Source of the DNA: a virus
Lineage: Duplodnaviria; Heunggongvirae; Uroviricota; Caudoviricetes
Length of the DNA: 5,228 nt
Direction: 5' to 3' (one strand)
IMG/VR virus record: IMGVR_UViG_2778261673_000005
Positions within the stretch are counted from its first letter, which is position 1. Each line of letters opens with the position of its first letter. Made by a program: the position numbers and the translations under genes. Below the pieces are notes generated by a model. The model ran no database searches. It had not been told where the DNA came from and was given only the letters and a program-made list of their open reading frames with translations. Positions 51 to 5,228 of the stretch are shown here, piece after piece.

Positions 51-332
51 CTAAATCAGTAAGTTGGCAGCATCACCCGCCGTGCCATCCTGAGAGAATT
101 CCATATGCAACCTGCATTTTTTCCCTTTCCAGTTATGCGGCTCATCAAGTTTGGCATTAATTGCAGCTCTGATTCCCCGCGCTTGCGCCCCCCATTCATC
201 CTGATCATCCCAGCGTCCTGAACTGCAACTACCTGTAGCAGTAGTTTTGTGGCAATCTGAAGGGTGTAAAGGTGTGCATCCCGCAACAAAACCGACCCAA
301 AAAGTCAACATAACGATTTTCTTTAATCCCAC
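51..332 (-). CDS. Small lipoprotein with partial TolA C-terminal-domain-like sequence (truncated paralog of the 483-911 gene)
   Basis: 93-aa ORF with GTG start at 332 preceded by GAGGAG about 6 nt upstream. N-terminus MGLKKIVMLTFWVGFVAGC has a hydrophobic signal segment and lipobox VAGC. C-terminal ARGIRAAINAKLDEPHNWKGKKCRLHMEFSQDG aligns by eye with AHQIKSAIEKQFGDASKYSGKECTLRMHMAPNG of the neighbouring ORF, but the protein ends before the rest of the domain. Confidence 0.55.
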   Translation of the reverse strand: MGLKKIVMLTFWVGFVAGCTPLHPSDCHKTTATGSCSSGRWDDQDEWGAQARGIRAAINAKLDEPHNWKGKKCRLHMEFSQDGTAGDAANLLI

Positions 333-482
333 TTCTTGCTCCTCAATCCATTAAAATCTCAGCAATAGTAGTTGTTACGTCCGCCACTGGCTCAGAGCTG
401 ACTATCCGCTAAATTTAGCTCAGTGCCGTAGCTGTGTCAGAACAAACCTAAGCCGAAACCGTTTATTACAAAACAATAAATA

Positions 483-911
483 TCAGGGTTTAAAATCCAG
501 CACCCCATTTTGAAATACTTTATATACTTCCGGCGAAGGGGGGGCAGGTATATCAGCATTCTTTATCGCATTCATCGCTTCACGACATAAATCGAGGTCT
601 CCACTTTCTCTTTTAACCTCCAGTAGAAGGCCATTCGGGGCCATATGCATTCTCAGTGTACACTCTTTTCCTGAATACTTACTCGCATCCCCGAACTGTT
701 TTTCGATGGCGCTCTTGATTTGATGGGCATACAGACGGATATCCTCACTAACATCAGAAGTACGTTCAGATGAACTCACATACTGTGTCTCTATTGCTTT
801 ATCGGAGTAATATGATGTACGGTCATGATAATTTGTCGATACAGCATCAGTGCACCCGATAATAATCCCACTAATAATCAACGTAAGAATTGATGCGCTA
901 CGAAAACCCAT
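483..911 (-). CDS. Lipoprotein carrying a TolA C-terminal (domain III)-like domain
   Basis: 142-aa ORF, ATG at 911 with GAGGA just upstream. Signal peptide plus lipobox (LIISGIIIGC). C-terminal ~85 aa (QIKSAIEKQFGDASKYSGKECTLRMHMAPNGLLLEVKRESGDLDLCREAMNAIKNADIPAPPSPEVYKVFQNGVLDFKP) closely resembles the C-terminal domain of E. coli TolA as recalled from memory, including the terminal FKP. Confidence 0.75.
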   Translation of the reverse strand: MGFRSASILTLIISGIIIGCTDAVSTNYHDRTSYYSDKAIETQYVSSSERTSDVSEDIRLYAHQIKSAIEKQFGDASKYSGKECTLRMHMAPNGLLLEVKRESGDLDLCREAMNAIKNADIPAPPSPEVYKVFQNGVLDFKP

Positions 912-940
912 TTTTCCTCACATATGTCATATAGTAAAGG

Positions 941-970
941 ATTATATATACCGTTGTTTTGGACGCTCAA
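941..970 (-). promoter_or_regulatory. Candidate sigma70 promoter for the TolA-like lipoprotein gene(s)
   Basis: On the minus strand: -35 TTGAGC (965-970), 18-bp spacer, -10 TATAAT (941-946), about 25-30 nt upstream of the ATG at 911. Sequence-only prediction. Confidence 0.4.
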
Positions 971-1112
971 ACAGCGAATCAGATCAAATAAAACGCACAT
1001 TTGTTAACATTTACACAAAGTCTGCGTGGGATATTCTGAAAGAATATCCATAATGTGGAGAGAATCTATTGAAGTGCATGGTGCCGGGTGCCTCCCGGTG
1101 AACAAAATGTTC

Positions 1113-1151
1113 GTGATACCTGTCGGCGACAGAAAAGGTTAATGGTATCAC
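1113..1151. repeat. Nested inverted repeats (possible protein-binding site or RNA structure)
   Basis: Outer 8-bp perfect inverted repeat GTGATACC (1113-1120) / GGTATCAC (1144-1151). It encloses the palindrome CTGTC-GGC-GACAG (1120-1132). A further short stem CCGGG/CCCGG lies at 1084-1098. Confidence 0.45.
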
Positions 1152-1508
1152 CCCACCGCACAGGGGGATTCACCATGCAGGAGTTTTCTTAGCAAACTCA
1201 CTGCGCGCCCGGCAACTCCCAACCACATAAAATGCGGAGTTTGTGGCATTTATGCATATAACTCGCAGGAATTATCTTAAAAAACTGATGTCGATCCGGA
1301 TTAAAAAGAAGCAGGTCATCATCAGATGACTGGAAAAAAGGAAAACAAAAAATACTCATCATACAGTTTTGATTGCAGGGATGAGCCTGCTATGCACAAT
1401 ATGCAGAATATAAGCAAGATAAAAATATGCAGGCATATTATTTCGGATTTTGTTATTAACACAACCTTTTTAATAATCATTTGGCATACAATAAACCAGC
1501 CCAGAAAG

Positions 1509-1528
1509 AACCGCCTAAACAGGCGGTT
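1509..1528. repeat. Perfect 8-bp stem, 4-nt loop hairpin
   Basis: AACCGCCT (1509-1516), loop AAAC, AGGCGGTT (1521-1528). On the minus strand it is followed by CTTTCT, so it could be a weak terminator or RNA element. Function unknown. Confidence 0.35.
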
Positions 1529-1772
1529 GGTCAATACAAAGGATGCTTCGTCTTTATTATAGTAATCTGAGGCGTCGGGTGTCTTGTATCAGACAACATA
1601 TTGTCCCGCTAAACAGCGAATTACAAACCACCCTGCAATGATCTCTCATCTCATTTTATATGAGTTGACGACATCAGGATAACGCATCATCAGCCCCTGC
1701 CAAGAAATATCAAAACTCCCGCCAGCAATGTGTTATCACAATATTGTAAAAAAAACACAGCACCGAAACTAT

Positions 1773-1811
1773 AACTGGTCTCTGTTATAATTTGGAGCAG
1801 AAAGACCAGTT
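1773..1811. repeat. 9-bp stem hairpin with 21-nt AT-rich loop
   Basis: AACTGGTCT (1773-1781) pairs with AGACCAGTT (1803-1811). The loop contains TATAAT. It lies about 35 bp from the symmetric terminator. Confidence 0.35.
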
Positions 1812-1845
1812 GCCCAACTAGCAGCATTCTCCCCTGCTTTCCTGA

Positions 1846-1878
1846 CGTAAAAAAACCGCATTAAGCGGTTTTTTTACG
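1846..1878. terminator. Symmetric (bidirectional) rho-independent terminator-like hairpin downstream of the Q-like gene
   Basis: Perfect 14-nt inverted repeat CGTAAAAAAACCGC (1846-1859) / GCGGTTTTTTTACG (1865-1878) with a 5-nt loop. GC core CCGC/GCGG is flanked by an A7 run on one side and a T7 run on the other, so either strand reads stem followed by a U-tract. Confidence 0.5.
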
Positions 1879-1955
1879 ATGTCCATGTCTGCAATCCGCC
1901 TCGCGATACAGCTTTGCGAAGCATAGCAAAATTGAAGCAGTTTATACGTAAGAAA

Positions 1956-2498
1956 TCAAGCCATTTTCTCAGCAAATGATTCACGCATGGGAATATATAG
2001 GGCATACTCAGCAACAGCTAACCAATTAGCAATCCGTTTTTCGCATGTGCTAAAACACCACTCTGGGTGTGCATCATTTAGCAATTCAGCCATTTTGCGC
2101 TTAGTCATCCCCCGCCCTTCATAGCGTTGCCGGAGAATGCAAATCAATCCTGGATGCTCTGCCAGCACCTCACTTATGACTCGATCAATACATAACGCCT
2201 CTGCATCAGTACAATGCGCCAGCCAGCTCTTTTGCTTGCCGTTGATCATCTCTCGCAAAAACGCTTCCAGCTCAGCTTTCTCTATTCCCGCTTTTTTCAT
2301 TCTGCGCAGGGCTTCATTAATGGCTGTTTTCGTCAGTTTTTTGGATGCCAACAACTGATTGAACATATTCCCTGACCTGCCACCGCCAATATACGACCAG
2401 CGCCCCCACATACGTAGTTTTCCCTGAATCCAGACACTTTCCAGCGTGGTGAGGCGAAGGTGTTCTCCGCTTTTTCCTGTATTCGTTGGGTAAATCAT
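1956..2498 (-). CDS. Putative late-gene antitermination protein, phage-82-type Q-like
   Basis: 180-aa ORF directly downstream of the nin-like genes and upstream of a terminator. Start overlaps the preceding gene stop in ATGA (2495-2498). Motifs LRMWGRW and CTDAEALCI resemble, from memory, the WG-W and Cys-rich signatures of phage-82-family Q proteins. Not verified by search. Confidence 0.55.
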   Translation of the reverse strand: MIYPTNTGKSGEHLRLTTLESVWIQGKLRMWGRWSYIGGGRSGNMFNQLLASKKLTKTAINEALRRMKKAGIEKAELEAFLREMINGKQKSWLAHCTDAEALCIDRVISEVLAEHPGLICILRQRYEGRGMTKRKMAELLNDAHPEWCFSTCEKRIANWLAVAEYALYIPMRESFAEKMA

Positions 2499-2785
2499 AA
2501 ATGACCTTTCTTTCTCCAGATTTCTTGTGTGCGAAAAACCCCTTCAGCATGCATCAGGCGCAATTCTTCTTTGGTGTAATCGCTGGTTTTTACCCGCCCG
2601 TCGATTAGATCGTGGCATGAGCTACAGGCTATCGCCGCCTGCATATCGTGTGGTTTTGTCGCTGTTCCGCACGTCCCCGCCAGCCTGTAATGCGCCAGCA
2701 CAGAGGTTTCGGGATTGTGATTGCAGTAGCCAGGGATTCTGATCTGGCACATCTGGCCTTTAGCCGCTTTACGTAAATTCACCAT
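2495..2785 (-). CDS. YbcO-like DUF1364 family phage protein (putative nuclease) of the nin region
   Basis: 96-aa ORF. LRKAAKGQMCQIRIPGYCNHNPETSVLAHYRLAGTCGTATKP...IACSSCHD matches the Cys/His-rich pattern of E. coli prophage YbcO (DUF1364) as recalled. Start ATG overlaps the upstream stop (TAATG at 2783-2787). Confidence 0.75.
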   Translation of the reverse strand: MVNLRKAAKGQMCQIRIPGYCNHNPETSVLAHYRLAGTCGTATKPHDMQAAIACSSCHDLIDGRVKTSDYTKEELRLMHAEGVFRTQEIWRKKGHL

Positions 2786-3384
2786 TACGCAAACTCCAGT
2801 AGTTGTGCGGCCACATTTTCAACTTCCTCCTGAGAGGAGAATTTACGGAACAGAATCCAGTTCCACAGCACATTCAGTACAGATTTATAAACCTGCTGAA
2901 ACTCGACTTCGTCCATATTCGCAAAAGCGATGGATTTTGCCCGACGCCCACGGCTACCGTCCGGATAAATATGCTCGGTGTAAAATCCGGCCTGAATGGT
3001 TACCCACTCGCGGAAAGCCTCAAACGACTTTAGCAACGCCGTATCCCGGGTTCTACGAGTCGCAACGGTGTTAAGGTATTGCTCTGCGGCATCACTCAGG
3101 GCTGATGTGTGTTCCCGACCAACTGATTCGCACAGGTAATCCACGAAACCAGACAGCAGTTCTCGTTCGCGAGGCGTGATCGCCCCACCGACCGGAGTCC
3201 AGTAATCGAATCCCAGTTGCAGGAGTTTGAAAAAACGCTTGTGGAATGCGTAGTTACGCACACGCTTAAAGTCTGCGTGTATCCACTCACCTATTTTGAT
3301 TTGATGCAGAAAATCGCAACTCTCCGGCGTCGCCGGGAGAAGTAAACCAGAAGAGGTTTGTTTGACCAGTTGTATATGCGCCAT
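2785..3384 (-). CDS. DUF1367-like lambdoid phage nin-region protein
   Basis: 199-aa ORF with GC-rich, host-like codon composition. Its size and its position immediately upstream of a DUF1364-like gene and Q match the DUF1367-DUF1364-Q neighbourhood recalled from enterobacterial prophages. Family assignment is from memory only. Confidence 0.6.
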   Translation of the reverse strand: MAHIQLVKQTSSGLLLPATPESCDFLHQIKIGEWIHADFKRVRNYAFHKRFFKLLQLGFDYWTPVGGAITPRERELLSGFVDYLCESVGREHTSALSDAAEQYLNTVATRRTRDTALLKSFEAFREWVTIQAGFYTEHIYPDGSRGRRAKSIAFANMDEVEFQQVYKSVLNVLWNWILFRKFSSQEEVENVAAQLLEFA

Positions 3385-3442
3385 TTCTCAATCTCTCGAT
3401 GGCGCAGTGCAGCAGATGCCAGTTGTTCAGGCTGACGTATAA

Positions 3443-3470
3443 AGTATAAATAAACTGGTTCCAGTGTAAA
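3443..3470 (-). promoter_or_regulatory. Candidate sigma70 promoter for the nin-like/Q operon
   Basis: On the minus strand: -35 TTTACA (3465-3470), 16-bp spacer, -10 TATACT (3443-3448), about 55 nt upstream of the ATG at 3384. It lies downstream of the terminator that ends the S8 gene. Sequence-only prediction in AT-rich DNA. Confidence 0.35.
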
Positions 3471-3506
3471 GCCCCCACATTGATGGAATAAAAATCAAAC
3501 AATAGA

Positions 3507-3536
3507 TTGCTGGGATAAAAATACAACGCTTATTAT
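3507..3536 (+). promoter_or_regulatory. Candidate promoter for the small hydrophobic ORF
   Basis: -35 TTGCTG (3507-3512), 18-bp spacer, -10 TATTAT (3531-3536). This would give a leader of roughly 115 nt before the ATG at 3659. Weak prediction; other hexamer pairs in this AT-rich region are possible. Confidence 0.2.
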
Positions 3537-3658
3537 TAAAGCGGTTAGACAAATTAAATTTTAATGTTATGCAAATCTGCCAGATTAGCATAATATCTCA
3601 TTTGAAAACCGCTGAAATAACAATCTTATCAGGATTAATCATATTAAGGTGAGTAAAT

Positions 3659-3745
3659 ATGGAAAACAACAAATCTGCACATTACGCTCCTTTTTTATCT
3701 GTAATACTTTTTGTATTTTGTTGTGTATGGGCGGTATTTTTATAA
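3659..3745 (+). CDS. Unlisted small ORF encoding a 28-aa hydrophobic peptide (candidate small membrane protein or toxin-like peptide)
   Basis: ATG at 3659 preceded by AAGGTGA (3646-3652) with 6-nt spacing. Translation is MENNKSAHYAPFLSVILFVFCCVWAVFL, stop TAA at 3743-3745: a polar N-terminus followed by one 17-residue hydrophobic segment. It is followed 14 nt later by the strong hairpin at 3759-3792. Absent from the ORF track, presumably because of a length cutoff. Confidence 0.45.
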   Translation: MENNKSAHYAPFLSVILFVFCCVWAVFL

Positions 3746-3758
3746 AACACACCCACAA

Positions 3759-3792
3759 ATAAATCAAACCCGCTACAGCGGGTTTGATTTAT
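3759..3792. terminator. Strong hairpin terminator between the convergent small ORF (+) and S8 peptidase gene (-)
   Basis: 15-bp perfect stem 3759-3773 / 3778-3792 (core AAATCAAACCCGC / GCGGGTTTGATTT) with 4-nt loop TACA. It lies 7 nt beyond the S8 stop on the minus strand and 14 nt beyond the small-ORF stop on the plus strand. T-rich flanks on both sides but no clean U-run. Confidence 0.55.
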
Positions 3793-3799
3793 ATAGTTG

Positions 3800-5167
3800 T
3801 TATACGGAAACTGGCACACGAGCAGGCAATGGATAGTGAGCCCAGTTATTAGCATTTAAAGCTCTTACACCATCAGCATAAACTTGTGTGTTTCCATCTA
3901 ATGATTTTAAAGTTACTACAATAGTTACAGGTAAAGGCTCCATTAAGGCCGGTTCATTCGCTCTCAACGTTGTTTTAGCCTGAAGAGCCCAGTTACCCGA
4001 AGTAATTCCTTTATTAAATGCCTTGCGATGAATTTTTACTGGTGACCACTTTCCACCATGCTCAATTTGAGCTCTCTCATATCCAGATTGACCGTTTTCT
4101 CCTTCCATAGGCACTTTTCCTTTTATAGTATTATTCTCAATTAAGCCAAAACTTAGCTCTACGTTCGCGCGAACATATTCACTGCCGGCATTAGGGTTTA
4201 GTGGTGGTGCATATGCAGCAGTAATTACAATCTCACCTTTAAATTTTCCATTTTGAATAAGTGCCGATGGTATGGGATAGTTTTCCTTTCTCCACCTCAC
4301 CCCAGGAACCAAGAATGTTTGGAAAATCAGAGTAAACCTATCATCACTATCATATAAGGTCTCAATAACCTCATTAGGAATTCCCGCTCCCAAATAGCGT
4401 CTTTCACTTGGCGAGTAATCAGGAGAAGATAATTGAGCGGAATGAATTAATAATGCTTTAATCAATGATGGTGAAACATTAAAGTCTGAATTAGTGGCTA
4501 TTCTCTGCCATGTATGCGCAGCTAAACTTGCCACAATTGGAGCAGCAAAACTAGTACCAAAATTAGAGCAAAGCCTATTATCTGGCCCTACGACCTTTAA
4601 ACTGCTTGCTCCTACATTCCAAGGTCTATGAACCCCACCGCCAGCATGGATTATATCTGGCTTTGGAGTAAATACAGGCCCAGGGCCACGACGAGTATAT
4701 GGTGTCGGTGTTCCAATTTCACTTAAAGCATCATTAGCTTCCATATGAGAAACTGAACCAACTGTTAGTGCTCGGACTGACTCTCCAGGAGAGGAAATTA
4801 AATCAGCACCTCCAAGCGGATCAGGATTTGGCCATGTACGTATAGGTTCATCTACATAATTACCTGCAGCAACTACAAACAAAATACCAAATTTATCGCT
4901 GAGCCGATCTAACTCCATCGCAAAATCACTAAACATCTGCTCATTACATGGTCCGCCTCCCAAAGACAAATTCCAGACTTTTATATCTGGTCTTTTATTT
5001 ACAGCATCTGCTAGCCTCAGAATTAAATCTGATATATAAGATCCATTTTCATCTAAAGCACAAACATCATGGATTTTAGATTTTGTATCAGGAATCCATG
5101 GATGATTGTCATTTAAAAAATGAGCGCCTGATATCAATGAAGACACCATAGTGATCTTACCCAGCAA
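3800..5167 (-). CDS. S8 family (subtilisin-like) serine peptidase homolog with uncharacterised C-terminal extension; N-terminal catalytic motifs not recognisable (possibly truncated or inactive)
   Basis: 455-aa ORF. Contains S8 hallmarks GTSFAAP (catalytic Ser motif), VVAAGN (oxyanion-hole Asn motif) and NLSLGGG, in subtilisin-like order and spacing. No D-[ST]-G Asp motif or canonical HGT His motif precedes them. The first in-frame start is TTG at 5167 with no clear SD; alternative ATG at 5149. An in-frame TGA lies at 5198-5200. About 200 C-terminal residues have no family I can recognise. GC content is visibly lower than the nin block. Confidence 0.7.
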   Translation of the reverse strand: MLGKITMVSSLISGAHFLNDNHPWIPDTKSKIHDVCALDENGSYISDLILRLADAVNKRPDIKVWNLSLGGGPCNEQMFSDFAMELDRLSDKFGILFVVAAGNYVDEPIRTWPNPDPLGGADLISSPGESVRALTVGSVSHMEANDALSEIGTPTPYTRRGPGPVFTPKPDIIHAGGGVHRPWNVGASSLKVVGPDNRLCSNFGTSFAAPIVASLAAHTWQRIATNSDFNVSPSLIKALLIHSAQLSSPDYSPSERRYLGAGIPNEVIETLYDSDDRFTLIFQTFLVPGVRWRKENYPIPSALIQNGKFKGEIVITAAYAPPLNPNAGSEYVRANVELSFGLIENNTIKGKVPMEGENGQSGYERAQIEHGGKWSPVKIHRKAFNKGITSGNWALQAKTTLRANEPALMEPLPVTIVVTLKSLDGNTQVYADGVRALNANNWAHYPLPARVPVSV

Positions 5168-5216
5168 TAGTGGACACGCGGCTAAGTGAGTAAACTCTCA
5201 GTCAGAGGTGACTCAC

Positions 5217-5228
5217 ATGACAAAAACA
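5217..5228 (+). CDS. Probable start of a rightward gene running out of the window (product unknown)
   Basis: ATG at 5217 (ATG ACA AAA ACA = MTKT) preceded by AGAGGTGA (5204-5211) with 5-nt spacing. Only four codons are visible. Confidence 0.25.

Follow-up and report, generated by a model that had tools for sequence, protein, structure and literature searches.

Probable 3' remnant of the anti-phage protease gene ietS, disrupted by IS3, in a lambdoid prophage of Escherichia coli

The stretch of DNA described here (the window) is 5228 bp long and constitutes the whole of a draft contig, NOHY01000091.1 (GCA_002475545.1), taken in reverse-complemented orientation. Its minus strand carries an open reading frame (ORF) of 455 codons, listed mechanically at 3800..5167 with a TTG start. 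In the order of transcription, the ORF adjoins, on their upstream side, the DUF1367-YbcO-DUF1133(Q-like) genes of a nin/Q block. Both tips of the window consist of exactly 77 bp of insertion sequence (IS) DNA, IS1 at 1-77 and IS3 at 5152-5228. By combining the available sequence comparisons and structure predictions, it is possible to describe the ORF, with a probability of roughly 93%, as a pseudogene fragment that comprises the 3' 60% of ietS (spelled iteS by NCBI) and belongs to an IS3-disrupted, inactive copy of the known IetAS system.

The original prediction, made from the letters of the sequence, was right to place the ORF among the S8 subtilases. The SLGGG, VVAAGN and GTSFAAP motifs are all present, and the Pfam profile Peptidase_S8 (PF00082) is matched with 80.1 bits (E 2e-22), above the cut-off of 21.8. 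The match spans residues 29-246 of the listed ORF and corresponds to profile positions 80-275 of 288 only. In full-length IteS, the same profile is matched by residues 268-544 over positions 5-274. The PADLOC model IetS PDLC02197 aligns with residues 6-454 of the ORF (E 5e-212) over positions 297-748 of 749, and the NCBIfam model NF042956 IteS_antiphage ('S8 family anti-phage peptidase IteS') aligns with 740.6 bits (E 2e-222) over positions 295-747 of 747. As these matches begin only at about model position 295-297, the listed ORF lacks the front of the protein. The NF042956 equivalog cut-off of 900 bits is missed by the ORF and is passed by the intact IteS of E. coli PE164 (1042.8 bits, model positions 1-747). 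The remnant corresponds to residues 305-754 of this 754-residue protein (WP_016232657.1), with 450 of the 450 amino acids identical. It falls into a cluster of 1093 members, formed at 90%, that bears the name 'S8 family anti-phage peptidase IteS'; the list of its homologues consists mostly of proteins of about 750 residues with the same name, each covering 100% of the query. Judged by these alignments, the ORF is a fragment of an IetS family member and not a complete member.

The point at which ietS is interrupted coincides with the end of an IS3 element. Window positions 5152-5228 are identical at 77 of 77 positions to 4001-4077 of a locus of E. coli S171-1 (L002), the left end of an IS3 annotated in RefSeq, where the coding sequence of an 'IS3-like element IS3 family transposase' starts at 4066. 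The end in the window opens with the TG... of the terminal inverted repeat, which is followed by the start of orfA. Read on the minus strand, ietS switches at 5152 to '...GCTGGGTAAGATCA', the reverse complement of TGATCTTACCCAGC.... The window contains only the first 77 bp of the element, the rest of which lies outside the view together with the target-site duplication. The homology of intact ietS loci to the window ends exactly at 5152 in every relative, and in each of them ietS continues there instead. The intact gene reads ...TAT GAA CAT GGG ACT ATG GTG... at the break (Y301, E302, H303, G304, T305, M306, V307), and IS3 joins immediately behind the codons of His303 and Gly304, the first two residues of the histidine motif 'HGT' of subtilases.

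The transition from IS3 into ietS takes place within a codon. Codon 305 (ACT, 5152-5150), the sixth of the listed ORF, takes its first base from the terminus of IS3, to which codons 1-5 (TTG CTG GGT AAG ATC) belong entirely; the listed TTG is therefore a non-native start. The first in-frame ATG of the remnant, at 5149-5147, encodes Met306 of IetS. Gene callers start the product at this ATG in public assemblies, where a protein of 449 residues is recorded as 'S8 family peptidase [Escherichia coli]' and no record exists of the 455-residue, TTG-initiated product.

S8 peptidases work by an established Asp-His-Ser mechanism. When 34 IetS homologues, which share 50-84% of their residues with the first sequence, were aligned, D273, H303, G304, T305, N402 and S505 were found to be invariant. 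The window keeps N402 and S505; the catalytic Asp273 and His303 are located upstream of the break and are absent, and the corresponding motifs (VAVFDTGV and YEHGT, respectively) were found in the full-length relative only. Also missing from the window are the N-terminal region of about 265 residues, the native start with its ribosome-binding site, and the upstream gene ietA, in whose place, as seen in intact loci, the window has IS3. The gene, which had been taken as complete, is thus a copy truncated at its 5' end by IS3 and deprived of two of its three catalytic residues. The features of the locus are given in Table 1.

Table 1. Coordinates of the ietS remnant, its parts and the adjoining elements in the window
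Feature	Position	Strand	Details
ietS/iteS 3' remnant	3800..5151	-	codons 306-754 and stop; identity to PE164 IteS, PADLOC, NF042956, DNA match
Stop codon of ietS	3802-3800	-	
Remaining Peptidase_S8 catalytic domain	4430..5083	-	PF00082
Oxyanion Asn402	codon 4861-4859	-	VVAAGN motif
Catalytic Ser505	codon 4552-4550	-	GTSFAAP motif
IetS C-terminal domain, residues ~568-754	3803..4363	-	predicted beta-sandwich / jelly roll, family-conserved
IS3 left end	5152..5228	+	terminal inverted repeat TGATCTTACCC..., orfA ATG at 5217; cut by the contig end
First six codons of the listed ORF (TTG CTG GGT AAG ATC ACT)	5150..5167	-	non-native start
Intrinsic-terminator-like hairpin	3759..3792	-	15-bp stem, 4-nt loop; directly 3' of the ietS stop

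The protease encoded by intact relatives of the remnant is not a standalone enzyme, as had been proposed. In every intact relative examined, iteS follows ietA/iteA, the gene of an AAA+ ATPase, in an operon made up of these two genes. In E. coli PE164, iteA (384 residues) is followed by iteS (754 residues), and the end of iteA overlaps the start of iteS. The same overlap is found in strain F2_81, in phage vB_EcoS-683R6 and in two draft contigs (L009 and L010). IteA matches NF042959 with 526.6 bits (cut-off 510) as well as Pfam AAA and is a classical AAA ATPase. The PE164 pair is situated between replication genes (YdaU, an ATP-binding/DnaC-like gene, DUF1627 and DUF977) and nin/Q genes, in a Rac-like prophage beside trkG and ynaK. 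In the relatives, the region adjoins trkG, ynaK and lysis genes.

A megablast comparison of the window with 5426 complete E. coli genomes identified 21 genomes that are 99.6-100% identical to it over positions 78-5152 and carry the RefSeq genes iteS, DUF1367, DUF1364/YbcO, DUF1133 and TolA-C-terminal. The ietS allele itself is present in 78 of the 5426 genomes, where an intact ietAS occupies the corresponding position; it is always chromosomal and single-copy, with an identity of at least 99% (99.4-100% at the DNA level). In strains F2_81 and SCU-104, the DNA shared with the window is 100% identical. Two further genomes, S171-1 and EC20-72C-1 (H22/H23), had been considered as end-to-end relatives of the window and were rejected, as their coverage of the window is the fortuitous sum of unconnected IS3, IS1 and prophage segments, and they carry hokD and not ietAS.

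The following observations bear on the mobility of the module. The ietAS genes, together with a 390-bp AT-rich downstream spacer, occur on two nin/Q backbones, DUF1367-YbcO-DUF1133, as in the window, and DUF968-RusA-Antiterm. An intact ietAS is carried by the induced phage vB_EcoS-683R6 (ON470595), with 98.4% identity. The related prophage of S171-1 is devoid of ietAS and has hokD in its slot (L002 11179-11666 against window 3523-3773, 92%), the homology to the window stopping at 3773, inside the terminator hairpin. Related prophages thus exchange different toxin or defence cargo in the slot that separates the replication genes from the nin genes. The position of the gene upstream of nin/Q and its horizontal acquisition, both part of the original prediction, agree with these findings, which support the description of ietAS as a horizontally mobile, low-GC cargo (a moron) of a lambdoid prophage, located between the replication and nin/Q modules.

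The base composition of the remnant had been said to contrast with neighbouring genes of about 55% guanine plus cytosine (GC). The ietS part is indeed lower, with 40.2% GC and 24% GC at third codon positions (GC3), but the neighbours have only about 49-50%, the value for the DUF1367-YbcO-DUF1133 nin/Q block being 49.1% (GC3 48-55%). The strong terminator that had been ascribed to the gene was found as described, as a hairpin with a predicted RNA folding energy of -26 kcal/mol (z = -6.35; none of 200 shuffled sequences folds as well). In a promoter scan, no promoter-like site was found in the interval from the end of IS3 to the ATG at 5149, the hits being internal or downstream only; three promoter-like sites were found, compared with 5.9 expected from shuffled sequences. 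Inspection of the sequence ahead of the same ATG revealed no clear Shine-Dalgarno element, and scans for tRNA genes and Rfam families gave nothing within the coordinates of the remnant and its terminator.

The ietS terminator is separated from the DUF1367 gene by a spacer of 415 bp (3385-3799) with 33.7% GC. The equivalent spacer contains an IS3-family element in strain F2_81 (L012 7616-8829) and IS1A in S171-1 (L002 10423-11120); it is a repeated IS target.

The C-terminal part of about 200 residues had been thought to match no family. The PADLOC and NF042956 models, however, cover it end to end and align through to the last C-terminal residues of the ORF. In an AlphaFold2 prediction based on an alignment of 35 sequences, the last 187 residues form an eight-stranded beta sandwich with one helix (mean predicted local distance difference test score, pLDDT, 76.8; predicted template-modelling score, pTM, 0.77). 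The model of full-length IetS (pLDDT 75.6) has Tk-SP as its best structural match (E 2e-17), followed by KP-43, SubHal, PCSK9, fervidolysin and furin; all of these subtilases carry an additional beta domain at the C-terminus. When the Protein Data Bank was searched with the sequence of full-length IteS, only weak S8 matches were obtained (KP-43, E 9e-6), and no IetS structure was found to be deposited. According to the predicted models, the IetS C-domain is a subtilase-type beta-jelly roll, a kind familiar among S8 enzymes though divergent (7-12% identity). The two comparisons that had been proposed originally, of gene neighbourhoods and of predicted structures, thus point to a conserved partner, ietA, and to a C-domain that is not novel.

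Subtilases with a C-terminal beta-jelly-roll or P-type domain include Tk-SP (3afg), KP-43 (1wmd), SubHal (5fax) and furin/kexin with its P-domain (4omc). IetS differs from Tk-SP, KP-43, SubHal and furin in having a long N-terminal region and an ATPase partner. Tk-SP, KP-43, SubHal and the furin/kexin-type enzymes are secretory, and IetS, we presume, has no signal peptide.

The system to which the remnant belongs has been described. IetAS is described as a toxin-antitoxin pair that consists of a serine protease toxin and an ATPase antitoxin (PMC13069673). That paper credits the first description, as a plasmid-stabilising pair of pTiC58, to Yamamoto et al. (2009, J Bacteriol 191:4656) and the recognition of its anti-phage role to Gao et al. 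(2020, Science 369:1077). Phage defence by IetAS needs the activity of the protease, and ietA mutants could not be constructed (PMC13069673). The IetAS of B. cereus shows abortive-infection behaviour with a single phage protein as the trigger (bioRxiv 10.1101/2022.08.27.505566), and that of E. coli ECOR52 gives limited protection alone and acts in synergy with Zorya II (bioRxiv 10.1101/2022.08.21.504612). A variant, ietHAS (Liu-DS4), contains an SNF2 helicase in addition; here, too, protease activity is needed for defence and ietA is antitoxin-like (PMC13069673). The loci related to the window share the core of ATPase and S8 protease with ietHAS. In contrast to ietHAS, however, these E. coli prophage loci have no helicase gene beside ietA, which is accompanied by the replication-module genes DUF977 and DUF1627 instead.

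The proposal that the gene is a candidate for defence or toxin functions therefore holds insofar as it belongs to a phage-defence/toxin system, but it is not uncharacterised, being the IetS of the published IetAS. For the gene family, the partner, the defence role and the location as prophage cargo, descriptions already exist, and routine NCBI annotation names them. The window shares with intact IetAS the S8 core motifs, the C-domain, the terminator and the position between replication and nin/Q genes. It differs in having codons 305-754 only, with IS3 in place of Asp273, His303, the N-terminal region of about 265 residues and ietA.

These observations suggest the following course of events. 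In the intact relatives, as described in the literature, IetA would act as the antitoxin to the IetS protease, and a phage protein would trigger toxicity, leading to abortive infection. In an ancestor of the window, a copy of IS3 would have inserted into ietS immediately after the codons of His303 and Gly304. What remains codes for the half of the S8 domain that carries Asn402 and Ser505 and for the beta-jelly-roll C-domain. With only one residue of the Asp-His-Ser triad left, the remnant is expected, from its sequence, to be inactive as a serine protease, and probably gives neither toxicity nor defence. A Ser-to-Ala mutant of this copy, which had been suggested as a control, would for the same reason start from a protein that is presumably inactive already, Asp and His being lost. 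The insertion is likely to be recent, because apart from it the remnant does not differ from intact alleles.

Several points weigh against this description. The window stops 77 bp into IS3, and ietA together with the first 304 codons of ietS could either lie beyond it, as in a simple insertion, or be deleted. A 137-bp query containing the exact IS3::ietS junction found no record covering at least 80% of its length among complete E. coli genomes, and a 30-nt junction pattern gave 0 hits in the GTDB species-representative genomes. The junction, missing from both collections, thus rests on a single draft contig with 2 samples on record. For a 5' ietS fragment that reads on into the right end of IS3, the products predicted with target duplications of 2-5 bp and for two alleles have no counterpart in a collection of 15 billion proteins, a negative that is uninformative. 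The in-frame ATG at 5149 could in principle yield a fragment of 449 residues.

It might be asked whether the junction was made by the assembler, or exists only in a sub-population (heteroplasmy), while an intact ietAS is present. IS ends at contig tips are a usual product of short-read assemblers at repeat boundaries; the window, itself an entire draft contig, is tipped by exactly 77 bp of IS1 at one end and of IS3 at the other, as is typical of such boundaries in de Bruijn graphs, and breaks at many points within ietS are seen in other draft assemblies. A 77-bp stretch of IS3 contiguous with unique ietS sequence, however, presupposes reads or k-mers across the junction, the breakpoint lies exactly at the terminal base of IS3, as transposition predicts, and the contig is recorded for more than one sample. 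The locus has also received insertions elsewhere, namely IS5 inside ietS (L003/L013) and, in the spacer next to it, an IS3-family element and IS1. An artefact of this kind is therefore considered very improbable. Much the same small weight is given to the idea that the 449-residue fragment is translated from the ATG at 5149 and acts in trans as a dead decoy or dominant-negative protein, titrating IetA or the phage trigger and so modulating the defence or toxicity of an IetAS-type system. The frame is open for 449 codons and identical to intact alleles, the terminator is retained and gene callers call the product. A recent insertion explains the identity equally well, however, and the fragment has neither a promoter-like site between IS3 and its ATG nor a clear Shine-Dalgarno element. 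Half of an alpha/beta subtilisin fold, deprived of the strands and the helix that bear D273 and H303, would, by the structural model, be unlikely to fold, and nearly all other '449-aa' calls are contig-edge artefacts rather than conserved truncations. The least probable of the alternatives, to which practically no weight is given, is the one proposed originally, in which the S8 protease would be intact and standalone, with a C-domain of a novel, sensor- or effector-like kind and an uncharacterised defence or toxin function. Its S8 motifs, low GC, own terminator and cargo position are all real. But the start of the ORF is IS3 DNA, the Asp and His of the triad are absent, the C-domain lies fully within the curated IetS/IteS models and has a jelly-roll fold of the subtilase type, and intact homologues are always paired with ietA. 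The alignment with full-length IteS and the IS3 junction together refute it.

The description of the ORF as an IS3-disrupted remnant of ietS has consequences for annotation. The copy is best entered as an ietS pseudogene disrupted by IS3, and as neither a functional defence system nor a novel protease, and the C-terminal domain of IetS can be annotated as a subtilase-type beta-jelly roll. The window may also serve as a small example of the IS-mediated decay of a toxin or abortive-infection module in a defective lambdoid prophage. Bounded by IS1 and IS3, it is a typical case of the IS-disrupted genes of defective lambdoid E. coli prophages of the Rac, Qin and DLP12 type.

A recurrent, conserved truncation was considered as the origin of the public calls of 449 residues and was rejected, since 8 of the 10 loci inspected are simply open to the contig edge. 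The true disruptions among the loci inspected are the window and one other (L013), which contains IS5. The latter represents a second, independent disruption of the same ietS allele (L003/L013 1-1175, GCA_013156805.1), with an IS5-type transposase gene (DUF772 and DDE_Tnp_1) upstream and homology to intact ietS starting only at about nucleotide 367 of the gene.

The remaining part of the window contains several other features. The IS1 end at 1-77 matches that of an annotated IS1A with 98.7% identity and removes the 3' part of a gene (window 78-311, minus strand) for a 124-residue 'cell envelope integrity TolA C-terminal domain-containing protein', which is intact in relatives (L001 6860-7234). 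Two ORFs on the minus strand match TolA C-terminal (PF06519), one at 483-911 with 82.6 bits and the other, truncated, at 51-332 with 21.3 bits. The former, of 142 residues, is given in RefSeq as an incomplete tolA pseudogene, yet its frame is open. Both ORFs have lipoprotein-like N-termini (…IIIGC and …VAGC) and are placed between Q and the lysis genes. Domain III of TolA is the co-receptor of filamentous phages and colicins, and we assume that the two proteins could be periplasmic mimics of this domain.

The small RNA family STnc100 of Rfam is matched on the minus strand at 1022-1208 over the full length of the model (86.6 bits against a gathering score of 47, E 3e-18), in the non-coding stretch of about 1 kb that separates the Q-like DUF1133 gene from the TolA-C-terminal genes. 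Since it lies downstream of the antiterminator gene, it may be a late-operon leader or a terminated transcript. Phage vB_EcoS-683R6 has tRNA-Gly and tRNA-Thr after Q (L011 4068-4218), where the window has STnc100 and the TolA-C genes and no tRNA; the cargo after Q thus differs between otherwise near-identical backbones. The YbcO/DUF1364 protein (2495-2785, minus strand) gives weak PADLOC matches (E about 2e-3) to models of HNH-type endonuclease effectors over residues ~52-83 only, which probably reflect a shared zinc/HNH-like motif and not a defence role.

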